Assembly: GCA_041649575.1 (NCBI GenBank)
Contig: JBAZMW010000002.1
Span: 78,159 to 142,158 of the forward strand
Direction of reading: 5' to 3'
Length of the DNA stretch: 64,000 nt
Origin: Patescibacteria group bacterium
GTDB lineage: Bacteria; Patescibacteriota; Patescibacteriia; 2-01-FULL-39-33
Within the stretch, counting starts at the first letter, position 1. Each line of letters starts with the position of its first letter. Both the position numbers and the translations under genes were made by a program. A model generated the notes under the pieces. The model saw only the letters and a list, made by a program, of their open reading frames with translations. It had not been told where the DNA came from and ran no database searches. Below are positions 2,887 to 18,341 of the stretch, one piece after another.

Positions 2887-3864
2887 ATGCTAGACCAAAA
2901 TATTAAAAAGTTTTTGGCTAAACTCTCGCAGTCGTTTCTTTTGTTCGCCCCGCAACCGTTGGGGAGTGTTGTTAAAATAAAGCCAGTTGCAGAGATTGGC
3001 AATATCGACTGGTCGGGCGCTATGCCGCTCAACTCCTGGAAAGAAATTTTTTTACCAGCCAGAGAAAGATTATTCGACCTAAAGAAAAATTCTTTTTTTG
3101 AGTCCAAGACGGATTATCCGGCTACCGCCTGCATTGGCATTAATGTTTTGGATTTAAAGGCCTTTACTTTATTTGAACAGGTGTTCGGCCGCGATGCTTA
3201 TTATCAACAGCGGCGTCGCAATCTGTTGCTTGTCGGCTACAGCGCCCAGTGGCCCAATGATTACAAAAAATACAAAGTTTTCAGTCATAACTGGGAAGAA
3301 GATATTTTAGAGCATCTGGTTTTTGATATTTTTATAATTCAACTGAAGAACGATAAAACCAAGATTTACTCCGGTTCAGAGAAAGGGCAATTGATTCTAG
3401 AAAAATACGGCCTGAAAAATTACACGCATTTGGAATTTGCCGGCGCTGTCAAAGAGCAAGGCCCGGATAAAAAAATGTTGGAGCTCAAGGAAAAGCTGGC
3501 TAAGGCCTCCAGCCACAAACTCTGGAACGAACTTGATAAAATTTGCCTGGCCTGCGGTAAATGCTCGATCGCTTGCCCCACTTGTTTTTGTTTTGATTTA
3601 TTTGATAAAGTCGACCCCGATAAGAATTGTCGCGAGCGTTATTGGGGCAATTGTTTTTATAACGATTTTTCCAAGGTGGCCGGCGGTTTTAAAGAGCTAG
3701 ACACAGTCAAAAAGAAGATTTATTTTTGGTATACCCACAAATTTGTCCGCATTCCGCACGAATATTCTCTGCCCGGTTGTGTCGGTTGCGGCCGTTGCAC
3801 TCGTGTTTGTCCGGTGGGAATTGATATTGCCAAAAACGTTTCTATTATCGGTAAAATCAGATAG
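2887..3864 (+). CDS. [NiFe]-hydrogenase group 3b (sulfhydrogenase-type) beta subunit, 4Fe-4S ferredoxin domain protein (HydB/AsrA-like)
   Basis: C-terminal CxxCxxCxxxCP-type motifs (CLACGKCSIACPTCFCFD; CVGCGRCTRVCPVG). Followed 6 nt later by the gamma subunit. Confidence 0.7.
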   Translation: MLDQNIKKFLAKLSQSFLLFAPQPLGSVVKIKPVAEIGNIDWSGAMPLNSWKEIFLPARERLFDLKKNSFFESKTDYPATACIGINVLDLKAFTLFEQVFGRDAYYQQRRRNLLLVGYSAQWPNDYKKYKVFSHNWEEDILEHLVFDIFIIQLKNDKTKIYSGSEKGQLILEKYGLKNYTHLEFAGAVKEQGPDKKMLELKEKLAKASSHKLWNELDKICLACGKCSIACPTCFCFDLFDKVDPDKNCRERYWGNCFYNDFSKVAGGFKELDTVKKKIYFWYTHKFVRIPHEYSLPGCVGCGRCTRVCPVGIDIAKNVSIIGKIR

Positions 3865-3869
3865 TTTCA

Positions 3870-4691
3870 ATGAACAATATTTACCAAGCTCAACCAGCCA
3901 AAATAATCAGTGTCGTTCAAGAATCTTTAGACACCAGGTTTTTTCGCTTGACCTTTGTCAACAAAAAATTACAAAAGGAGCTGGCTTTTCTGCCGGGCCA
4001 ATTCGTGCAAATCGGTTTGCCGGGCTGGGGCGAGTGTCCTATTAGCATCTGTTCTTCCCCCTCCAACGCCAATAAATTCTTTGAGTTAGCCATCAGAAAC
4101 GTCGGTACGCTGACTAATGAGCTTAGTCGGTTGAAAGCCGGGGAAATAGTGTTTATCCGCGGGCCATACGGCAACGGTTTTGATATCGATTTTTCCAAAG
4201 ATAAGCCGCTAGTGATAATCGGCGGTGGTTGCGGTTTTGTGCCACTAAGGCCACTGATTCAGGATTTTTTGGCTGGCCGTTTGTCTAGTTCCAGCCTGCA
4301 GATATTTTATGGCTGCCTCAATGAAAAAACCCTGTTGTTTAGAAAAGAATATCATCTTTGGAATCGCCGCGCCGAACTCAACATTATTTTGGAAAAGCCG
4401 TCCAGAGAATGGAAGGGCAAAAAAGGCCTGATTACAGATCTGCTGGCCCAAAAAAAGATTTCGGCCAGCTCGGTGGCTGTTCTGGTGGGCCCGCCAGTGA
4501 TGTACAGGTTTGTCATCAAGGAACTCAAAAAAAGAAATCTGAAAGATGAAAATATTTATTTGTCGCTGGAGCGGAAAATGTATTGCGGCACTGGTGTTTG
4601 CCAGCATTGTGCCATTGGCCCGTATTATGTCTGTAAAGATGGCCCGGTTTTCTCTTGGAGCCAGCTGAAAGGTTTGCCTCAAGCGATTTAA
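3870..4691 (+). CDS. [NiFe]-hydrogenase group 3b gamma subunit (FAD/NAD(P)-binding oxidoreductase with C-terminal 2Fe-2S cluster, HydG/AsrB-like)
   Basis: Ferredoxin-NADP reductase-like fold motifs (RxFS-type FAD site, GGGCG NAD site) and C-terminal CGTGVCQHCAIG Fe-S motif. Confidence 0.7.
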   Translation: MNNIYQAQPAKIISVVQESLDTRFFRLTFVNKKLQKELAFLPGQFVQIGLPGWGECPISICSSPSNANKFFELAIRNVGTLTNELSRLKAGEIVFIRGPYGNGFDIDFSKDKPLVIIGGGCGFVPLRPLIQDFLAGRLSSSSLQIFYGCLNEKTLLFRKEYHLWNRRAELNIILEKPSREWKGKKGLITDLLAQKKISASSVAVLVGPPVMYRFVIKELKKRNLKDENIYLSLERKMYCGTGVCQHCAIGPYYVCKDGPVFSWSQLKGLPQAI

Positions 4692-4694
4692 TTT

Positions 4695-5207
4695 ATGCTG
4701 TTAACGGTTTTGTTCTTAATAATTATGGTGATTCTTGGCTCTGCCGCCGTTGCCGGTTTGTCTGCTGCTCCTTGGGTGCCAATGAGGAAAGCGGATGTGA
4801 TACGAGCCGTGGAATTAGCTGAAGTGAAAGCCGGTGACAGGGTTTACGATTTGGGTTGTGGTGACGGTCGGTTGGTTTTTGCCGCCAGTGGTCGCGGTGC
4901 CAAAGCGATTGGCTTGGAAATTTCCTTATTGCCTTTTGTTATTGCCAAAATCAGAAGCTGGTTTCAGCCGCTGACCAGGGTGTCATTTAAAAGTTTTTTC
5001 AGACAGAATTTGGAAGATGCCGATGTGGTTTTCGTTTTTTTGATGAAAAAGATTTATCCGAAACTGGCGACAAAACTAACCAAAGAATTGAAGCCGGGAG
5101 CCAGAATCGTGGTTTACTGCTGGCCGATTGATGAATTAAAAAGCAGTCTGATTGAAAAAAATAAGCCAACCGAAAAAGATTTGCCGCTCTATCTTTATCA
5201 AATTTAA
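4695..5207 (+). CDS. Membrane-anchored class I SAM-dependent methyltransferase (paralogue of 50615..51163)
   Basis: N-terminal TM helix, then motif I DLGCGDGR. Aligns along its length with the 50615 ORF (GDxxYDLGCG...G.E....EADVVF.YL...P.ARVVV). Confidence 0.6.
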   Translation: MLLTVLFLIIMVILGSAAVAGLSAAPWVPMRKADVIRAVELAEVKAGDRVYDLGCGDGRLVFAASGRGAKAIGLEISLLPFVIAKIRSWFQPLTRVSFKSFFRQNLEDADVVFVFLMKKIYPKLATKLTKELKPGARIVVYCWPIDELKSSLIEKNKPTEKDLPLYLYQI

Positions 5208-5395: not shown

Positions 5396-6676
5396 ATGTG
5401 CCTCACTCTGCCGGCCAAAGTTGTTAAAGTCAAAGGGTTACAAGCCGAGATTTTAGCCAGTGGCGCAAAACAAGTGGTGAAAATAGGCACTGCCGCTAAA
5501 ATTAGAGCGGGGGATTGGGTGCTTTATACCAATAATTTTTTAATAAAAAAAATCAGTCAGACTGAAGCCGAAGAAATTTCCGCCTTGCTTGGTTCCTATC
5601 AAGGCGTTACCGAAGCTAAACTAGAAAAAAAATTAAAGGACATTCTAACGGCCTCGTCCGTTCGCGATCTAAACGTCGAAGAGATTGAATATCTTTTGGG
5701 AGTTGATGGTCAAATTTCACAGGCAGCTCTTTTTTCACAGGCCAATGTGGCCAGAAAAGCCAATATCAAAGATCATATCTGTATCCATGGCATTATTGAG
5801 TTTTCCAACCACTGTCAAAACGATTGTCTTTATTGCGGCCTAAGGAGAAGTAATGACAAAGTTAGCCGTTACCGCCTGTCGCCGGAAAAAATAATCAAAA
5901 TAGCAGTGGCTGCTGTCAATAATCGCGGTTACAAGATTCTGGTCTTGCAATCGGGCGAAGACGATTATTATAGCGATGGTAAAATAGAATTAATTATAAA
6001 AGAAATAAAAAAACAGGCCAGAGTTTTCATTTATTTAAGTATTGGTGACAGAAGTGAAGCGGCTTACAAAAAATTCAAAGTTGCCGGCGCCAGCGGTGTC
6101 CTATACCGTTTTGAAACTTCCAACCCCGATATCTATGTCAGCCTGCACCCCGGCGACTCTCTGGAAAAAAGATTGGAAAATTTAGAAATGATGAGAAATC
6201 TGGGTTATGCGCTTTCCTCCGGGCCACTCATTGGCTTGCCAGCTCAAACATTAAAAGATTTGGCCAGTGATATAACACTAATGAAAAAGCTGGGTGTGTT
6301 TATGCCCTCAATGGGGCCGTTAATTCCTTCAGCCGAGACGCCGTTGGCCGGTGAAAAAAAGATTGATTTTGGCTTAGTTTTAAAAATGATTGCTGCCAGC
6401 CGTTTGGTTATGCCCAAAGCCAGAATTCCCGTTACTACTGCCATGGAGACTTTGGCGCGAGGCGAGGGAATAAGTATCGATGAAGCTAGACAGAAATGTT
6501 TTATGGCCGGCGCTAATTCCGTAATGTTGAATCTGACTCCTGAAACCCAACGGCAGAAATATTATATTTATGAAAACAAATTTTTTGATGTCGAAAAGAA
6601 ATATGAGAATTGGGGGTTGTTTAAGGGAGAATTGAGTTATCGGATGTTGGAAGAAGAGTTACGGGTCAGTATTTAA
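5396..6676 (+). CDS. Fusion protein: N-terminal HypC/HybG-like hydrogenase maturation domain plus BioB/HydE/ThiH-family radical SAM domain
   Basis: First ~75 aa MCLTLPAKVVKV...GDWVLYTNNFLIKKISQTEAEEISALL match the HypC pattern (MC[LI]x[IVL]P, GDWVLVH...EA). Downstream, IEFSNHCQNDCLYCGLRRSN has a CX3CX2C radical SAM motif closely resembling the HydE/ThiH signature. Single uninterrupted ORF. Confidence 0.65.
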   Translation: MCLTLPAKVVKVKGLQAEILASGAKQVVKIGTAAKIRAGDWVLYTNNFLIKKISQTEAEEISALLGSYQGVTEAKLEKKLKDILTASSVRDLNVEEIEYLLGVDGQISQAALFSQANVARKANIKDHICIHGIIEFSNHCQNDCLYCGLRRSNDKVSRYRLSPEKIIKIAVAAVNNRGYKILVLQSGEDDYYSDGKIELIIKEIKKQARVFIYLSIGDRSEAAYKKFKVAGASGVLYRFETSNPDIYVSLHPGDSLEKRLENLEMMRNLGYALSSGPLIGLPAQTLKDLASDITLMKKLGVFMPSMGPLIPSAETPLAGEKKIDFGLVLKMIAASRLVMPKARIPVTTAMETLARGEGISIDEARQKCFMAGANSVMLNLTPETQRQKYYIYENKFFDVEKKYENWGLFKGELSYRMLEEELRVSI

Positions 6677-6740: not shown

Positions 6741-7298
6741 TCACACTTGCTGCTGAACCACTATCTTGCGGTAGTAGTCCAGCCCCGACCAGATGCAGAC
6801 CGCGCTGATGAGTATCCCAGTGGTGTAGTACAGCATTTCCCTGAAGCCAGAGAGCGGACTTAAGTAGCTGCCCGGAACTGGTAGCGCCGCCACCAGGGAG
6901 CACATGCAAGTCAAATTGACCACGGTCTTGATCTTGCCCGAGGTCTTGGCGCCGATCACCTCGCGCGCGTAGTAGTGGCGCAGTATGGTGGAGAAGGTGT
7001 CGCGCAAGACGATGATGATCACCGGCAAGAGATGGATCATCCCATGAAAGTACAGCGGGACAAAAATCAAGATCAGCACTTTATCGGCCAGCGGATCCAG
7101 CCATTTGCCGGCAGCCGTGGAGCCCCAAAGACGAGCCGCGAGACCATCGAGCTTATCGCTTATGGCGCACCACAACACCAGTACAAACAGCAAGACGTGT
7201 GACTGAGGCGAGATTGGCGAATAGCACAGAATAATCAGCGCGGGGCCTGTCAAAACGATTCTCGACAGGGTGATAAAATTGGCAATATTCCTTTTCAA
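6741..7298 (-). CDS. CDP-alcohol phosphatidyltransferase family protein (PgsA-like); visibly G+C-richer than neighbours; likely TTG start with GGAGGG Shine-Dalgarno
   Basis: Motif DKLDGLAARLWGSTAAGKWLDPLADKV (D-G-x2-A-R-x8-G-x3-D-x3-D); multi-TM. On the opposite strand to all neighbours. Confidence 0.7.
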   Translation of the reverse strand: MKRNIANFITLSRIVLTGPALIILCYSPISPQSHVLLFVLVLWCAISDKLDGLAARLWGSTAAGKWLDPLADKVLILIFVPLYFHGMIHLLPVIIIVLRDTFSTILRHYYAREVIGAKTSGKIKTVVNLTCMCSLVAALPVPGSYLSPLSGFREMLYYTTGILISAVCIWSGLDYYRKIVVQQQV

Positions 7299-7961: not shown

Positions 7962-8792
7962 TTGATTACTAATTACATGGCCAAGGCAAAAAAACCACGA
8001 TTAGCAATTATCGGCCTGACATCTTGTGAGGGCTGCCAGTTTTCCATGCTCGACAAAGGCCGGAGATTCTTGGGTTTAATGAAAAATTTTCAGGTAAAGG
8101 AATTTCGTCTAGTGGAGGATGAAAAAATGCTCGAAGAGAATTTTGACCTGTGTTTGGTTGAGGGCAACCCCGTCACCAAAGAAAACATTAGATTGCTCAA
8201 AGAAATGCGGCGGCGGTCGAAATTGTTAGTAGTTATTGGTAATTGCGCGGCTTTGGGTGGTGTCTGGGAGCTCAAAAATTATCAGAATAAGAAAAAGACC
8301 ATCAGGCAGGTTTATAAAAAAATAAAAGTAGCCAATCCTGACATTAAGGAAGTGGATAATTTTGTTAAAGTTGACTTTACCATCCCCGGTTGTCCCATAG
8401 ACGGTGAGGAGTTTATGGAGCTGGCCTATCAGCTTTTAAGTGGCCGGATTCCGAAAATCCCTCAGAATCCTGTTTGCCATGAATGTCAAACAAGAGGTTA
8501 TGAGTGTTTACTGCAGCAAGGAGAGATTTGTCTCGGGCCGATTACTCTGGGTGGTTGTCGGGCAGTGTGCCTCAAAAGCCGGCAGGCCTGCTGGGGTTGC
8601 CGTGGATTGTTTGAGGGCGCGCGAGTGGAAAATTTAATGAAGGAACTGCTGTCAAAATTTCCTCGCGAACAGGTTTATCGGGTGATGGAGGTGTTTGGAG
8701 CGAGAGATAGTATTTTGAAGGAGTTGGAACAGGAAGAAAAGCCAGCTGAAATTAAAAATGTAAAACTAAAAGTTAAAAATTCTAAAAAATAA
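7962..8792 (+). CDS. [NiFe]-hydrogenase group 3b small (delta) subunit
   Basis: N-terminal LAIIGLTSCEGCQFS Fe-S motif of NiFe small subunits / NuoB-like fold; further Cys clusters (GCPIDG, CHECQ, CLGPITLGGC). Confidence 0.7.
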   Translation: MITNYMAKAKKPRLAIIGLTSCEGCQFSMLDKGRRFLGLMKNFQVKEFRLVEDEKMLEENFDLCLVEGNPVTKENIRLLKEMRRRSKLLVVIGNCAALGGVWELKNYQNKKKTIRQVYKKIKVANPDIKEVDNFVKVDFTIPGCPIDGEEFMELAYQLLSGRIPKIPQNPVCHECQTRGYECLLQQGEICLGPITLGGCRAVCLKSRQACWGCRGLFEGARVENLMKELLSKFPREQVYRVMEVFGARDSILKELEQEEKPAEIKNVKLKVKNSKK

Positions 8793-8796
8793 AGCT

Positions 8797-9117
8797 ATGG
8801 ATAAACAAGAAACAAAATCAGCAAAACCAGAATTACGTGTATCTAGGGATTGTCAAATCGCCTTGGTCACTAAAATGCAAATAGAGCTGATGAAGATGGA
8901 CGGCATTGAAGATACCGACGAAGAAGCCAATCAAAAAGCGCTTGAGTGGGTTGAAAGCAATTCCCCCAAGTTCAGAGAAATTTTTGAGGAGATGTTAGCC
9001 AGAATCCAGGACGATCCTCGTTACGGAGAAATAATTATAAAGGCTGAGGCCGGGTATACTGATGATTTAGTAGAAGCGATGCTGCCGGAAATCAGAACTC
9101 GCATGATGATACTTTAG
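8797..9117 (+). CDS. Hypothetical acidic protein (106 aa) embedded in the hydrogenase cluster
   Basis: ORF tightly packed between the small subunit and the PLP enzyme. No recognisable motif. Confidence 0.3.
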   Translation: MDKQETKSAKPELRVSRDCQIALVTKMQIELMKMDGIEDTDEEANQKALEWVESNSPKFREIFEEMLARIQDDPRYGEIIIKAEAGYTDDLVEAMLPEIRTRMMIL

Positions 9118-9141
9118 CGGTTTAAATAAAAATATATTAAT

Positions 9142-10173
9142 TTGAGTTTTATGTCATTATCTAAAGCGGAGGCTAAAATTCTGCAGTCAATTATTGTGTC
9201 TTCAGAAAATAATCCCAGTCGACCAGAATTTCCGGCCGATGATCCTAAATTTCCCGCCACCCCAACTTATAAAATTAAAGTGCCAGGCTTTTCTAATGTT
9301 TGGCTCAAAGATGAAAGCCATAATCCCACCGGAACCCATAAAGATCGGATGGCTTGGGAAATAATTGTTACTTATCGTGATTTTTTATTGACCCAAAAAC
9401 GAGGGCAAATTAAAGGTATTCTACCGGCCGTGTCAATTATTTCCTCTGGATCGGCGGCTGTCGCCATCCAAACACAACTACGGAAATATCATTTGCCAAA
9501 TCTCAAAGTTTTAGTCGACTCTTATCTTAATCAGGAAATTGTAAATTCACTCAAAAAAATTGGCTGTAGAATTTATAAAACTGATTTAAGCAAAAAACCA
9601 TTTCATTGGAAGGAAATTTTAGAGTTGACTCATAATCCAAATGGTTTTGATATTACTTCTAATGAGGCTTTAGACCCGGCTATGAGATTTTATGACTGGC
9701 TAAGTTATGAGATAATTAATAATTCACCAGACTATTGTTTTATTCCTTTCGGTACCGGCAATCTTTATGAGAATATTTTGAATATTAATAAAAAAGAAGT
9801 TTCAACTAAAAATCATGACCCTCGATTCAAGGGTAAGGTTGAAATTCTTAGGAATTGTAATTTTTTTGGCGTGACGACAAATAATCCAAGATCCCGAGCC
9901 GAAAAACTTTATTCGCCTCACTTGCCTTTTGTCCATTACGATGAGCAGTGGATTAGGCTGTATCGGCATGCCGGTTATTGTGGTCCAAAATCAAATGTTT
10001 ATTTATTGAAGGAGCAATATCTTAATGAGGCAATGAAAATTGCCGTTGCTCAAAAGATAAATTATGAGCCTTCTGGTATCTCTGGACTGGCCTTGCTTCT
10101 ACAAATAAAAAATAAACTTCCTAAAAATAAGAAGATTTTAGTTATTAATACTGGGAAAACTAAATATATTTAG
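9142..10173 (+). CDS. PLP-dependent enzyme, fold type II (threonine synthase / TrpB-like superfamily), divergent
   Basis: LKDESHNPTGTHKDRMAW matches the K-x-E-x-x-NPTGSFKDR PLP-lysine motif. Gly-rich SSGSAAVA, FGTGN and C-terminal EPSGISGLA are consistent with ThrC/CysK-like folds. Confidence 0.5.
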   Translation: MSFMSLSKAEAKILQSIIVSSENNPSRPEFPADDPKFPATPTYKIKVPGFSNVWLKDESHNPTGTHKDRMAWEIIVTYRDFLLTQKRGQIKGILPAVSIISSGSAAVAIQTQLRKYHLPNLKVLVDSYLNQEIVNSLKKIGCRIYKTDLSKKPFHWKEILELTHNPNGFDITSNEALDPAMRFYDWLSYEIINNSPDYCFIPFGTGNLYENILNINKKEVSTKNHDPRFKGKVEILRNCNFFGVTTNNPRSRAEKLYSPHLPFVHYDEQWIRLYRHAGYCGPKSNVYLLKEQYLNEAMKIAVAQKINYEPSGISGLALLLQIKNKLPKNKKILVINTGKTKYI

Positions 10174-10221
10174 ACATAGGCGGTGTTTTGATATAAAATA
10201 ATTTAAAAATATTAATTTATC

Positions 10222-11520
10222 ATGCGTATCCAAATAAATCACATTGGTAAAATGGAAGGCCACACGGACTTCGTGGCCGAGATTTTGAAAGGTGATGTCA
10301 AATCAGCCAAACTGATGACCACCGAAGGTGCTCGTCTGATAGAGGGCATTTTGGTCGGCCGTAATTTTTACGAGGCGCCGATTATCACTTCTCGCATCTG
10401 TGGTATCTGCCCGGTGGTTCATAAAATTTCCTCCATTAGGGCGCTGGAGAACGCTTTAGCTATTAAGCCCAGTGAACAGACAATTAAATTAAGAAAACTA
10501 ATGCTGATGGCGCAAACCATTCATAGCCACGCCTTACATTTGTTTTTTTTGTCTTTGCCGGATTTTTTCAACCTATTGGACGACTTTAAATTTATTGCCA
10601 ACCATAAAAAAGAAACTGATTGCGCTATTAAGGTGCGTGAGTGGGCTTTGAAAGTTATTGAAACTGTTGGCGGACGGGCGGTACATCCGATTGCTTGTGA
10701 AGTTGGTGGCTTTAAGGTTTTGCCCGACAAAAAAGAATTGAAAGATTTGGCTGATCAATACGAAAACATTCTAAAACAGGCACTGTGTCTGGTGAATCTG
10801 ACTATCAAAATAAAATTTCCCAAATTTAGCCGGCCCACGACCTTCATTTCTTTGACCAATGAAAAAGAATACGCCTTTTATGATGGCGATATTAAAATTT
10901 TAAATAAAAATGGCCAGACAAGGATTATTAAGGCCAAAGATTTTACCAAGAATATTAAGGAGATCGAAGAGCCCTATCGCGCCGCCAAATCGGCTGAGTT
11001 AAAGGGTGAGCCGTTTATGGTCGGCGCTTTGGCGCGACTAAATAACAATCATAGCCAATTGAATCACTTGGCCAAGGGAATTCAAAAAGGTTTAAAATGG
11101 AAGTTCCCGCAGTATAATTCTTTTGAAAATATTACCGCCCAGGCTATTGAAATCGTCCATTGTCTAGAGGAAGCCAAAAAATTACTTGACGATTTAGTTA
11201 AAAATTTGAAAAATGAGACCAGTCAGGCCGAGAAGCTCGGCTTAATTGGTCAGGCCAATCCCTTGGGACGTGAGACAAGTGGCTGTGACGCCAGCGAGGC
11301 GCCGCGTGGCACCTTGTATCATTATTACGCCATTGATAAAGACGGCTATATCAAGGATTGTCAGATTATCACGCCGACGGTGTCTTTTTTAAAAAATTTG
11401 GAAGCAGATATTATTGCCTATATCCCGGATTTGAAAAAAATGTCGCCCGAAAAATGTTCACGCAAAATCCGCGCCCTTATTCGCGCCTATGATCCTTGTA
11501 TTAGTTGCGCCACACATTAA
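10222..11520 (+). CDS. [NiFe]-hydrogenase group 3b large (alpha) catalytic subunit; ends exactly at the C-terminal His of the DPCxxCxxH motif
   Basis: N-terminal Ni-binding motif RICGICPVVH and C-terminal DPCISCATH followed directly by a stop codon. Confidence 0.85.
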   Translation: MRIQINHIGKMEGHTDFVAEILKGDVKSAKLMTTEGARLIEGILVGRNFYEAPIITSRICGICPVVHKISSIRALENALAIKPSEQTIKLRKLMLMAQTIHSHALHLFFLSLPDFFNLLDDFKFIANHKKETDCAIKVREWALKVIETVGGRAVHPIACEVGGFKVLPDKKELKDLADQYENILKQALCLVNLTIKIKFPKFSRPTTFISLTNEKEYAFYDGDIKILNKNGQTRIIKAKDFTKNIKEIEEPYRAAKSAELKGEPFMVGALARLNNNHSQLNHLAKGIQKGLKWKFPQYNSFENITAQAIEIVHCLEEAKKLLDDLVKNLKNETSQAEKLGLIGQANPLGRETSGCDASEAPRGTLYHYYAIDKDGYIKDCQIITPTVSFLKNLEADIIAYIPDLKKMSPEKCSRKIRALIRAYDPCISCATH

Positions 11521-11558: not shown

Positions 11559-11915
11559 ATGGCATTTAGATTCGAAAGTTTGGAGATTTGGAAAGAGGCG
11601 ATTAATTTTTCTAGTTCTACTTATAAAATTACTCGTCAGTTTCCCAAAGAAGAACTGTTTAGTTTATCTAGTCAGTTAAATCGGGCTGCGATTTCTATTT
11701 CGGCTAATATAGCCGAGGGCTCGGCAAGTGATAGTGTAAAAGAGTTTAGAATGTTTCTGAATATTTCCATTAGATCTGGCGTCGAAGTAATATCTGAATT
11801 ATTTATAGCTAAAGAAAGAAGCTATTTATCAGACGAAGAATTCGGCGAGTTATACAATACTGGAGAATTATTAATAAGAAGAATTTCCTCATTTCGCAAT
11901 CAATTAAAATTATAA
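11559..11915 (+). CDS. Four-helix-bundle protein (23S rRNA intervening-sequence protein family, TIGR02436/PF05635-like)
   Basis: Signature SSQLNRAAISISANIAEGSA; 118 aa. Family is common in CPR genomes. Confidence 0.75.
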   Translation: MAFRFESLEIWKEAINFSSSTYKITRQFPKEELFSLSSQLNRAAISISANIAEGSASDSVKEFRMFLNISIRSGVEVISELFIAKERSYLSDEEFGELYNTGELLIRRISSFRNQLKL

Positions 11916-11938: not shown

Positions 11939-12193
11939 ATGCACGATTTCCACTTAGCCGACATAATCTATAAAACAATTTTAGATTACGCCCAAAAAAA
12001 TAATTTGAAAAAAATCACCAAAGCGGTGATTGATTTGGGACAGATTATTGAGCATGGTGAGGAGGTGTTGGCGGAAAATTTGGATTTTAATATCAAAATG
12101 TTGGCCCAAGGTGGCCTGGCCGAAGGCTTAGAGCTGGTTATTAACAAAACAGCCGGTGATAGCTGGGTGCTAAAGGAAATAGAAGGAGTATAA
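11939..12193 (+). CDS. HypA-like hydrogenase nickel-incorporation protein lacking the C-terminal zinc-finger domain
   Basis: N-terminus MHDFHL (the MHE Ni-binding motif of HypA) and core similarity to HypA. Protein stops where the CxxC...CxxC Zn domain normally begins. Confidence 0.5.
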   Translation: MHDFHLADIIYKTILDYAQKNNLKKITKAVIDLGQIIEHGEEVLAENLDFNIKMLAQGGLAEGLELVINKTAGDSWVLKEIEGV

Positions 12194-13444: not shown

Positions 13445-13735
13445 ATGGCCAAATATTATTACGTTTATGTTTTGACTAATGCCAACAATTATGTTTTATA
13501 CACAGGAGTCACAAATAATTTGCAGAGAAGGTTATGGGAACACAAAAGCGGTAAGGCGGACGGTTTTACTAAAAAATATAAGTGTAAAAAATTGGTTTAT
13601 TATGAATATTCGGAGTCAATAGGCGCAGCCATAAATAGAGAAAAACAAATTAAGGCCGGCTCAAGAAAAAAGAAATTGGAATTGATAAACAATTTTAATC
13701 CGCAGTGGTTGGATTTGGGGCTGGAGATGTTTTAA
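13445..13735 (+). CDS. GIY-YIG nuclease family protein (small, 96 aa)
   Basis: YYVYVLTNANNYVLYTGVTNNLQRRLWEH carries the GIY-x10-YIG and R/E catalytic pattern. Confidence 0.8.
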   Translation: MAKYYYVYVLTNANNYVLYTGVTNNLQRRLWEHKSGKADGFTKKYKCKKLVYYEYSESIGAAINREKQIKAGSRKKKLELINNFNPQWLDLGLEMF

Positions 13736-16086: not shown

Positions 16087-16123
16087 TATTAAAATATTTT
16101 TGCCTCAGTGGGTTAAGAGTTTT

Positions 16124-16169
16124 TTAAAAAAGAAAACTGCCTCATCCTGCGCGTGCGTAGGTGAGGCAG
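16124..16169 (-). terminator. Rho-independent terminator for the minus-strand gene at 16191-16631
   Basis: Stem ctgcctca...tgaggcag with the T-run on the minus strand (plus-strand aaaaaagaaaa at 16126-16136). Confidence 0.6.
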
Positions 16170-16190
16170 TCGTGAAGAACGGGTCGGCCA

Positions 16191-16631
16191 CTACTTTACG
16201 AAGTTGAAGTGGCCATAGCGCATGCCGCTGTGAAGCCACCCGACGATTGCTTCGCCCTTGTACTCGCCGTCAAGGACATGGGCCGTGAATAGCCAGGAGG
16301 CTTCCCTACGCTCTCCCAAAAAGTCCAACAGGAGACCGGTGATGCGAATCGTTACTGTTTTCAGGTTGAATTCGTCGCTGGTCGCCGTACGGATTTGCTC
16401 GTCGGTAGCGCTCAGGTTGGTCGTGGCATACTGCAGGAGGCAGTAAATCATCTGTCTACCATTGTATATCCTGAGCGAGTCTATTAGCGTCGCCTGGCCC
16501 GGACAGCTTGTCACGTGGTTTTCGAAGTGCTCCCGCTTTCTGTACTTTGAGTCGGTAAGCAGCTTTGTTAGGGCCAGCCGGACAGCCTCGTCAAGCTCCA
16601 CAAAGCAGCCATTTCGTTCATTTGTTGCCAT
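16191..16631 (-). CDS. Hypothetical protein, G+C-rich orphan gene (likely start at the second Met with a GGAGGTG Shine-Dalgarno sequence)
   Basis: ORF of about 146 aa (MATNERNGCF...) with strong RBS ggaggtgcctt-ATG. Composition is clearly G+C-richer than flanks. No recognisable domain. Confidence 0.45.
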   Translation of the reverse strand: MATNERNGCFVELDEAVRLALTKLLTDSKYRKREHFENHVTSCPGQATLIDSLRIYNGRQMIYCLLQYATTNLSATDEQIRTATSDEFNLKTVTIRITGLLLDFLGERREASWLFTAHVLDGEYKGEAIVGWLHSGMRYGHFNFVK

Positions 16632-16772
16632 AAGGCACCTCCATTTCTTGCTAACGTACACCAGTCTCACTCACAGAGGCGGAGACTTGCCTCCATATTC
16701 CGCTAGGCGGAACGACCCATCCATAAGAATGGGAATTAATATATTTTACTAAATAGAATAGTTTTTGTCAAG

Positions 16773-18341
16773 ATGGCAGTTAATAAACCAAAACAATCTA
16801 AAAAAGTGATTTTATTAATTTTAGACGGCTGGGGGATTGGCAAAAATGACGCCTCCAATCCGATTTTTTTGGTCCGGCCGAAATTCATCAATTCGCTTTA
16901 TAAGAAATACCCTCACACCCAGATTTGCGCCTCTGGCCGTTGTGCCGGGCTGCCGCCGGATCAAGTAGGTAATTCCGAGGCTGGGCACATGAACTTGGGT
17001 GCCGGACGAGTGGTCGACCAGGATGCTGTCAAAATTTCCAAACAAATAAATACCGGTGAATTTTTCAAAAACCCGGCTTTTTTGGCGGCGTTTAGCCACG
17101 TCAGAAAAAATAATTCCGCCCTGCACTTGATAGGCATGCTTTCTAACGGGCAGAGTCCGCACAGCGATCCCGATCATCTTTTGGCCCTGTTGACCATGAC
17201 GCGGAAATATAAGGTCAAAAGGATTTATCTGCATTTATTCACCGACGGACGCGATAGCCCGCAACATTCCAGTCTGAAGTCAATAATGGCCTTGGAGCGA
17301 TCTTTGAAACCTAATGAAATAATCGCCACTGTCATTGGCCGTTTTTATGCCATGGACCGCAAAAAATCATGGGACCGCACGGTGCGCTCTTATAACGCCA
17401 TGACCGCCGATCACAGCGAACATCGCGCCAATAGCCCGCAGGCCGGAATCATGCGCGCCTATAACGCCAACATTACCGATGAGTTCATAGAGCCGATTGT
17501 TATTTATCGAAAAGGAAAAATAATCAGAAGAATAAGTGACGATGACGCGATTATTTTTTTTAATTTGCGCAGCGACCGCGCCCGTCAGCTGGCCAAGCCT
17601 TTTGTCCAGCATGATTTCGAAGCAGCCAATCCCGGCTCGGAAAAATTTCCCCGCAAAGAAATCCTAAAAAATATAGTTTTTGTCGCCATGACCGATTTTG
17701 GCCCCGATTTAGATAATATCTTGACCGCCTACCCCTCCGAAGATTTAAAAAATACTTTGCCTTTTGTTTTAAAAAACAAGAAGCAGGTTTATATTGCCGA
17801 GAGCGAGAAATACGCCCACGTCACTTTCTTTTTTAATGGCGGTTATGCCGATCCGGTTGCCGGGGAAAAAAGGATAAACGTTCCTTCGCCCCGAGTCAGG
17901 TCTTATGATGCGGCTCCGGCGATGTCGACCGCGGCCATTACCAAAAAAGTTATCTCCAGCCTCAAGAGTTACGATTTTATTTGCGCCAATTTTGCGTGTC
18001 CGGATATGATTGGCCATACCGGCAATCTGCTGGCGGCCAAGCAAACAGTCAAAGCGGTTGACGGCTATCTAAAAAAGGTGGTTTCCGCTTGCCTGAAACA
18101 GCAGGCAACCTTGATCATTACAGCCGATCATGGTAATATAGAGTACATGCGCAATCTTGATACCGACGAAGTTGTTACCGAGCATACCACCAATCCGGTG
18201 CCCTTTATTGTTATCAATAAAAATTTTAACAGAAACAGTCATTTGAAAAAGGGCGGATTTTTGGGTAATGTGGCGCCTACGATTCTAAAATTACTTGGCA
18301 TCAAAAAGCCAAAAGAAATGACCAAAGACAGCCTGATTTAA
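16773..18341 (+). CDS. gpmI: 2,3-bisphosphoglycerate-independent phosphoglycerate mutase, copy 1
   Basis: LILDGWG, GNSEAGH (phospho-Ser site), GRFYAMDRD, PDMIGHTG, TADHGN motifs. Confidence 0.9.
   Translation: MAVNKPKQSKKVILLILDGWGIGKNDASNPIFLVRPKFINSLYKKYPHTQICASGRCAGLPPDQVGNSEAGHMNLGAGRVVDQDAVKISKQINTGEFFKNPAFLAAFSHVRKNNSALHLIGMLSNGQSPHSDPDHLLALLTMTRKYKVKRIYLHLFTDGRDSPQHSSLKSIMALERSLKPNEIIATVIGRFYAMDRKKSWDRTVRSYNAMTADHSEHRANSPQAGIMRAYNANITDEFIEPIVIYRKGKIIRRISDDDAIIFFNLRSDRARQLAKPFVQHDFEAANPGSEKFPRKEILKNIVFVAMTDFGPDLDNILTAYPSEDLKNTLPFVLKNKKQVYIAESEKYAHVTFFFNGGYADPVAGEKRINVPSPRVRSYDAAPAMSTAAITKKVISSLKSYDFICANFACPDMIGHTGNLLAAKQTVKAVDGYLKKVVSACLKQQATLIITADHGNIEYMRNLDTDEVVTEHTTNPVPFIVINKNFNRNSHLKKGGFLGNVAPTILKLLGIKKPKEMTKDSLI

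Follow-up and report, generated by a model that had tools for sequence, protein, structure and literature searches.

Why should the gene of a pyridoxal phosphate (PLP)-dependent enzyme stand between the small and large subunit genes of a NiFe hydrogenase? The question is raised by a 64,000-nucleotide stretch of a Patescibacteria group bacterium (assembly GCA_041649575.1, contig JBAZMW010000002.1, positions 78,159 to 142,158 of the forward strand), called the window hereafter. In it, the gene of the small subunit (delta, group 3b type; 7962-8792, + strand; 276 aa with a Lys-rich C-terminal tail; Pfam Oxidored_q6, 83 bits) is followed by an open reading frame (ORF) for a 106-aa acidic helical protein without a Pfam family, a candidate hydrogenase accessory protein (8797-9117, +), by the gene of a stand-alone fold-type II PLP-dependent enzyme of 340 aa (9151-10173, +; Pfam PALP), and by the gene of the large subunit (alpha, group 3b type; 10222-11520, +; 432 aa; Pfam NiFeSe_Hases). 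The first-pass annotation, made from the letters alone, had noticed this arrangement and offered two explanations: that the enzyme, lying near a HypC-radical SAM fusion, makes precursors of the CN/CO ligands, or that it is an unrelated metabolic gene trapped in the operon. We consider it likely that the PLP gene wanders between genomes and here occupies, as cargo, a variable slot at the delta-alpha junction, independent of hydrogenase maturation, and that the acidic ORF belongs to a conserved, hydrogenase-linked family. The ligand chemistry is not supported; the trapped-gene alternative is.

The layout itself is as first described. The ORF list confirms the acidic ORF and the PLP gene between the two subunit genes, the motifs quoted for the PLP enzyme are present in the translation, and all four genes are co-directional with spacers of 4, 24-33 and 48 nt. 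The second spacer depends on the start codon of the PLP gene, for which ATG 9151 (340 aa) is likelier than TTG 9142 (343 aa) from the homologues and the public annotation. No terminator-like site was found on the + strand between delta and alpha, and promoter-like sites in the region are not more numerous than expected from shuffled sequence. Given the tight spacing and the lack of a + strand terminator, read-through starting at the hydrogenase promoter probably accounts for transcription of the PLP gene.

We compared the surroundings from two sides, numbering genomic loci with L and homologous proteins with P. On the PLP side, hydrogenase genes were sought within 10 kb in 89 loci of the family; on the hydrogenase side, a metagenome scan with the large subunit of the window gave 42 loci (49-98% identity), in which the PLP gene was sought within 6 kb. 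Hydrogenase genes lie near the PLP gene in three of the 89 loci only (L008/L010, both Buchananbacteria, and L012), and none of the 42 related hydrogenase clusters has the PLP gene, so that conserved co-location of the two was rejected. Homologues from bacteria of the candidate phyla radiation (CPR) and from DPANN archaea, 73-84% identical to the window protein, have unrelated contexts: DUF5680 and PPDK in Woesearchaeota, an ArsR-glutaredoxin-PLP-cation efflux (CDF) order in Micrarchaeia, RadA-PLP-DAC in another homologue, and SUF-NifU-FAD/NAD reductase-PLP in L006, where the SUF-NifU cluster is directly upstream. When the four genes on each side of about 83 loci were clustered de novo, the commonest neighbour family was present in 6 loci. 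The recurrence of PEP synthase/PPDK (in 4 loci), of iPGM (in 3 lineages) and of SufC (in 5 loci) is barely above the expectation for a 20-kb window in a 1-Mb genome, and the neighbourhood points to no function.

These counts bear directly on the idea that the PLP enzyme is a hydrogenase maturation enzyme, which would make a CN/CO ligand precursor from an amino acid or feed the HypC-radical SAM (HydE-like) protein. Its position, co-directional and tightly spaced between delta and alpha, speaks for it, as do the fusion gene 2.5 kb upstream of the PLP gene region (TIGR03956, 257 bits, slightly over the cut-off of 254.6) and the fact that no HypD, HypE or HypF gene was seen in the examined part of the window. 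Against it, the PLP gene is missing from all 42 related clusters, about 11 of which have the HypC-radical SAM fusion; 86 of the 89 family loci have no hydrogenase gene nearby; and archaeal copies with 75-78% identity lie in unrelated contexts. The maturation role is close to refuted, and we give it almost no weight.

What then explains the position of the gene? The 42 loci have a common block, beta-gamma-(methyltransferase)-HypC (with or without radical SAM)-...-delta-slot-alpha-(methyltransferase, 23S rRNA intervening-sequence protein or GIY-YIG)-HypA-PGK-SIMPL-enolase-slot-iPGM-iPGM, and the order beta-gamma...delta-alpha is kept throughout L095-L140. At the two slots the content differs from cluster to cluster. 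Delta and alpha are directly adjacent (gap <160 bp) in about 12-14 related loci; elsewhere the slot between them holds Methyltransf_33 and HD proteins (L136), Ser_hydrolase, HD and transmembrane proteins (L125), VanZ-like proteins (L124, L133, L012) or MazE/AbrB-like proteins (L106, L126, L138, L139). The enolase-iPGM junction is likewise variable, and it is here that L010 and L012 have the PLP gene: their order is alpha-HypA-(methyltransferase)-PGK-SIMPL-enolase-PLP-iPGM-iPGM, with the PLP gene about 5 kb from the hydrogenase. The window has the same block, yet its PLP gene is between delta and alpha, and its enolase-iPGM gap (16087-16772) is a 687-bp segment holding only a G+C-rich minus-strand ORF of 159 aa. 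Since the slot contents vary in related clusters, we read the PLP gene as one more cargo gene in the variable delta-alpha slot. Comparison of 8793-9150 and 16087-16773 among L010, L012 and the window by blastn and tblastx gave only chance-level A/T-rich matches and no insertion scar.

A second PLP enzyme occurs at the enolase-iPGM junction of L109 (11903-12736, +) and also of L110: a class IV aminotransferase (Aminotran_4, E 1e-49). The junction has thus taken two unrelated PLP enzymes, fold-type II in L010/L012 and class IV aminotransferase in L109/L110; the latter does no more than hint that amino-acid/oxo-acid metabolism may be linked to lower glycolysis.

Several points weigh against the cargo interpretation. 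The closest PLP copies (window, L010, L012) all lie within about 6 kb of a hydrogenase, which leaves room for a loose, lineage-specific association of the two; co-occurrence was assessed at the level of loci, with flanks of 6-10 kb. A promoter-like hexamer pair, TAGACA-17-TAAAAT (10171-10199, +), a putative internal promoter, is located just before the large-subunit gene, and co-transcription across the region is presumed. For the acidic ORF, its subgroups are weakly linked to each other, so that homology across the 18 members described below rests partly on their common position, size and charge. With these points in view, the first-pass fallback of an unrelated metabolic gene trapped in the operon agrees with the context data, and at the level of loci the relatives of the PLP gene occur in non-hydrogenase contexts, with no co-occurrence with hydrogenase genes.

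The fallback needs one correction, which concerns the enzyme itself. The PALP profile (PF00291) matches the protein with 73 bits (cut-off 35), and residues 41-338 cover profile positions 7-295 of 295, so it is a fold-type II PLP enzyme over the whole domain; its fold consists of two alpha/beta domains, as in tryptophan synthase beta. K67 in the motif NPTGTHKDR aligns with the Lys of the CysM motif NPAGSVKDR, which we take to be the Schiff-base residue K41, and is invariant in 24 close and 42 distant family members. Conserved across the family are also the phosphate loop P-x-G-x-G-x-L (P202, G204, G206, L208), S311 of the EPSG motif (a serine was to be expected here, close to the pyridine nitrogen), a Pro-rich motif at the N-terminus that is peculiar to the family, YDW (184-186), E190 and R228. 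With K67, the phosphate loop and S311 retained, the protein is probably an active PLP catalyst. By analogy with superfamily chemistry, its reaction would probably be a beta-elimination, a beta-replacement or a racemisation, with Ser, Thr, Cys or a similar small amino acid as substrate.

The subfamily is another matter. The protein had been called threonine-synthase-like, and the fold-type II part of this name stands, while the threonine synthase (ThrC) part does not. The NCBIfam equivalog models of ThrC, CysM and SbnA score 19-30 bits against cut-offs of 266-421 (ThrC: 29.9, 29.6 and 21.6 against 421, 266 and 358; CysM/CysK: 18.6-18.9 against 394-413). In the substrate loop, SSGSAA replaces (S/T)SGN(T/H)G, with Asn changed to Ser and the G103 and S104 columns invariant among the 24 close members; assignment to CysK, CysM or O-phosphoserine sulfhydrylase by the substrate-binding Asn loop TSGNTG was therefore rejected. 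The best sequence match in the PDB is CysM (E 1e-3), over the N-terminal third only, and the family profile gives partial matches there, to the C-terminus of ThrC (E 3.7e-9) and the N-terminus of CysM (E 1.7e-7). Structure comparison gave figures of 22.9 for Mycobacterium tuberculosis ThrC, 22.6 for CapA1, 22.6 for threonine deaminase, 22.4 for TdcB, 22.3 for serine racemase, 22.1 for CBS, 21.8 for SbnA, 21.2 for O-acetylserine sulfhydrylase and 20.2 for TrpB. Because the figures are alike for all subfamilies (20.2-22.9), they establish fold-type II and favour no subfamily; the protein is not nearer to ThrC than to the others. Among the recurrent neighbour clusters listed (representatives inspected, part of them annotated), none resembles a threonine-pathway gene, so no association with genes of homoserine kinase or dehydrogenase was seen. 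Only 370 of 1.84 billion cluster representatives are detectable at E<=1e-3. The PLP protein belongs to an isolated orphan clade and is not a ThrC or CysK orthologue, and the suspicion that it might be a standard one can be set aside with scores so far under the cut-offs.

Could it nevertheless assimilate sulfide? In such a scenario the enzyme would be a cysteine synthase (an O-acetyl- or O-phosphoserine sulfhydrylase) using H2S from the 3b sulfhydrogenase, and to lie where it does would bring it a weak adaptive benefit. Beta and gamma are similar to sulfhydrogenase and AsrAB subunits (see also PMC7304191). CysM and CysK give the best alignments to the N-terminal half of the family profile (E 1.7e-7), SufC-type neighbours occur in 5 loci with SUF-NifU directly upstream in L006, and some sources give members the automatic label 'cysteine synthase'. 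Set beside the changed Asn loop and the CysM/CysK scores above, this leaves the scenario very unlikely in our view.

The distribution of the clade is as unusual as its sequence. A protein search gave 1619 homologues; the top 120 have a length of about 340 aa and share 73-85% of their residues with the window protein, and their labels are Patescibacteria, Micrarchaeota, Woesearchaeota or Diapherotrites. When one genome per species was scanned, 332 genomes had a match, and of the 80 best loci listed nearly every one carries a CPR or DPANN label. Across CPR bacteria and DPANN archaea the identity within the clade is 68-85%; the mean is 73.5% for bacterial pairs, 72.7% for archaeal pairs and 72.4% for pairs that cross the domains (maximum 92.6%). 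Of 81 PLP sequences, 32 have their closest relative in the opposite domain, and to place the bacterial and archaeal labels on a neighbour-joining tree of these 81 takes at least 17 switches, a sign that the gene may have passed repeatedly from one domain to the other. The G+C content of the PLP gene follows that of its flanks (r 0.86, range 27-61%); as it is ameliorated to the host, the conservation reflects strong purifying selection and not only recent spread. Among the window, L010 and L012, the PLP protein is 83-84% identical, against 40-62% for enolase, PGK, iPGM and the large subunit. Two PLP copies (L038, L070) were found in one Iainarchaeum genome. Literature searches on this PLP family gave nothing relevant.

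More distant relatives have the PLP domain in fusions. Of 100 full-length representatives of 50%-identity clusters, 15 are without an N-terminal extension. The extension is TIR_2 in five (P0125, P0126, P0136, P0140, P0142) and an OmpR-type winged helix in P0165; several others are modules of about 100-160 aa without a known match. In the fused relatives (loci L090-L094) the PLP domain has 35-50% identity. The TIR-PLP genes examined are lone genes, and the P0136 contigs also carry a Por_Secre_tail gene (a Bacteroidota-type secretion signal). PADLOC gave only weak TIR hits on the fused relatives, and literature searches found no description of TIR-PLP fusions. These extensions, present in most 50%-identity clusters, raise the possibility that ligand sensing or regulation, and not metabolism, is the main task of the PLP protein, or that it has a part in conflict or defence, its wandering being the behaviour of an accessory gene; the lack of a stable neighbourhood and the label switches in the tree would fit this as well. 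However, the CPR/DPANN clade has no such extension and conserves the PLP-binding residues, and its 70-85% identity with ameliorated G+C points to strong purifying selection, unlike arms-race genes. PADLOC matched nothing to the PLP domain, and no relative was found on IMG/VR viral contigs, where a viral origin was looked for. We regard a regulatory or defence role as unlikely.

The acidic ORF behaves differently, and the two inserted genes do not form one unit: the acidic protein is positionally conserved with the hydrogenase and the PLP gene is not. The 106-aa product has a pI of 4.5 and a net charge of about -9.5, and its codon-usage score (0.354) is within the range of real genes. Searched as a single sequence, it found only itself. 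In the scanned loci, acidic helical ORFs of 80-115 aa occupy the delta-alpha gap in about 18 cases, about half of the related clusters. A jackhmmer search of a 10,146-ORF database connected the window ORF to its positional counterparts in L134, L130 and L111 (E 1e-40 to 1e-21). A second group of 14 lies at the identical delta-alpha position; its hhalign link to the first group is weak (P 0.0012, probability 19%), and the two are alike in length, charge, helical character and the pattern ...K.F..VSDIID....IR.A...GDY..A..ML.... A profile search of 5.8 billion proteins gave 15 members of 79-114 aa, all unnamed, and the two whose surroundings were examined (P0288 and P0279, both present on many contigs) are flanked by the Oxidored_q6 and NiFeSe_Hases genes of the block described above. 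The family is under purifying selection, with dN/dS of 0.04-0.15 in pairs where synonymous sites are unsaturated. No relative was found in Pfam, NCBIfam or the PDB, where family searches gave helical-repeat or designed-protein noise, and there is no Cys or His motif and no invariant residue across the 18 members. Comparing the charge of the basic delta tail with the presence of the acidic ORF gave no more than a weak trend (+5.0 against +2.8). Literature searches on a small acidic ORF gave nothing relevant, and the passages of PMC7304191 that we consulted do not mention one.

It could be argued that the 106-aa ORF is lineage-specific filler without a hydrogenase role, its position being inherited synteny. 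Very low sequence conservation without an invariant residue, absence from about 12-14 related clusters, and the lack of a Cys/His motif or known domain are in line with this. The ORF is, however, kept in place across roughly 20 diverged clusters while the other slot contents vary, its dN/dS is low, and the examined members from the large protein search (P0288, P0279) again sit between the delta and alpha genes. We therefore see filler as a minority possibility. The acidic protein is a fast-evolving, previously unnamed family with conserved co-location with the hydrogenase structural genes, a conserved companion of this hydrogenase in related CPR, and from this co-location we infer a candidate accessory protein, which may help in assembly or bind loosely to the enzyme as an extra subunit. 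It is the acidic protein, not the PLP gene, that is the hydrogenase-tied part of the locus.

The beta (2887-3864) and gamma (3870-4691) subunit genes of the hydrogenase, assigned by Pfam and NCBIfam, belong to the same conserved block on the + strand (2887-4691). The nearest NCBIfam models are ShyD and HydD for the small subunit and ShyA and HydA for the large subunit, and for all four subunits the best models are Shy/Hyd sulfhydrogenase types with scores under the equivalog cut-offs; as the nearest models of delta, alpha, beta and gamma are all Shy/Hyd, we assign the enzyme to group 3b. The large subunit has intact RICGIC and DPCISCATH motifs (L1 RxCGxC, L2 DPCxxCxxH) without a C-terminal extension, and with these motifs in alpha and the delta, beta and gamma genes present, the features of group 3b are complete. 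The small subunit is 60-78% identical to those of the related clusters.

Several neighbours in the block deserve description. In the window, the fusion gene (5396-6676, +) joins HypC (residues 1-65) to a HydE-like radical SAM/BATS protein. The fusion is seen in about 11 related clusters (L095, L098, L103-L105, L108, L113, L122, L130, L135, L136), and HypC stands alone (64-71 aa) in L096, L100, L106, L107, L109, L012 and L137-L140; a second radical SAM paralogue (24-26% identity) directly follows the fusion gene in L103, L104, L113 and L122. DUF6390 lies between HypC and the small subunit gene in several clusters (L012 1552-2822; L137-L140), joined in L012 by a flavin-reductase-like protein. 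The HypA-like gene encodes the N-domain only (11939-12193, +; 84 aa, with an MHD/MHE-type N-terminal start, no Cys and the zinc-finger part missing), and this short form is kept in all related clusters (L095-L140, L012). Between the gamma gene and HypC is a 170-aa methyltransferase-like protein with an N-terminal hydrophobic segment (4695-5207, +), found at the equivalent position in about 15 related loci; a second copy, 30-36% identical, often lies behind the large subunit gene.

Two minus-strand genes, both far G+C-richer than the window average of 0.43, interrupt the otherwise + strand block. The first (6741-7298) encodes a CDP-alcohol phosphatidyltransferase (GC 0.54, third-position GC 0.74) and is found on the minus strand at the equivalent place in L095, L122 and L133; the second (16191-16670) is the 159-aa ORF at the enolase-iPGM junction (GC 0.53, third-position GC 0.69), for which no homologue was found among the fetched loci. 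Small genes of the 23S rRNA intervening-sequence protein and GIY-YIG families (11559-11915, + and 13445-13735, +) occur sporadically and at differing junctions of the block (also L100, L104, L114, L115, L129), consistent with frequent small insertions.

Put together, the window has one version of the block, beta-gamma-(methyltransferase)-HypC-...-delta-slot-alpha-HypA(N-domain)-PGK-SIMPL-enolase-slot-iPGM-iPGM, in which the delta-alpha junction is a variable slot. In about half of the clusters the slot is filled by the small acidic helical protein, which would work with the hydrogenase; scattered genomes add unrelated cargo, here the stand-alone fold-type II PLP enzyme, which is probably expressed by read-through and, we propose, functions independently of hydrogenase maturation. 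The position of the PLP gene would then reflect gene-order flux in a loosened operon and not a new route to the CN/CO ligands.

This removes the attractive, unsupported idea of a PLP enzyme supplying NiFe cofactor ligands in CPR bacteria, and indicates that in reduced CPR genomes gene order is fluid enough for unrelated genes to enter a structural operon. The acidic family, exactly between the subunit genes, is a lead for a CPR hydrogenase assembly factor or extra subunit, and the orphan PLP clade common to CPR bacteria and DPANN archaea is a target for the biochemistry of episymbiont metabolism. As a speculation that we hold tentatively, the PLP proteins might be an uncharacterised, exceptionally constrained CPR/DPANN enzyme family, maybe central to the episymbiotic lifestyle with unseen chemistry or partners; the distant relatives of the family are wired to TIR and DNA-binding domains. 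Independently of this, the acidic protein might be a new 3b accessory subunit or assembly factor.

How does the locus compare with known systems? The closest to the PLP protein are members of the tryptophan synthase beta superfamily, namely threonine synthase, threonine/serine deaminases, serine/aspartate racemases, CysK/CysM/CBS, SbnA and CapA1. Its distant fused relatives resemble MocR/GabR regulators and TIR immune proteins in that a winged-helix or TIR domain precedes their PLP-binding domain. The PLP domain of MocR/GabR is of fold-type I, that of the fused relatives of fold-type II, and the window protein has no extension. For the acidic protein, the comparison is with the HyaE/HyaF, HupG-K and HoxL-type chaperones of group 1 enzymes, small accessory proteins encoded within hydrogenase structural operons. 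Like these, it is small and non-catalytic, has its gene among the structural genes and is limited to one hydrogenase lineage; unlike these, it has no sequence or profile similarity to known families and no conserved Cys/His, and only about half of the related clusters have it. As in the group 3b operons hydBGDA/shyBCDA of Pyrococcus and the CPR 'hyd1' clusters of Jaffe et al. 2020 (PMC7304191), all four subunit genes of the window are present and co-directional with a HypC-family gene near, and that paper already reports the genomic context of CPR 3b hydrogenases as variable. In contrast to these systems, the gamma-delta, delta-alpha and alpha-hypA junctions of the window are all interrupted. 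What sets these CPR loci apart from known 3b operons is a delta-alpha junction that holds a positionally conserved small acidic protein together with sporadic cargo.

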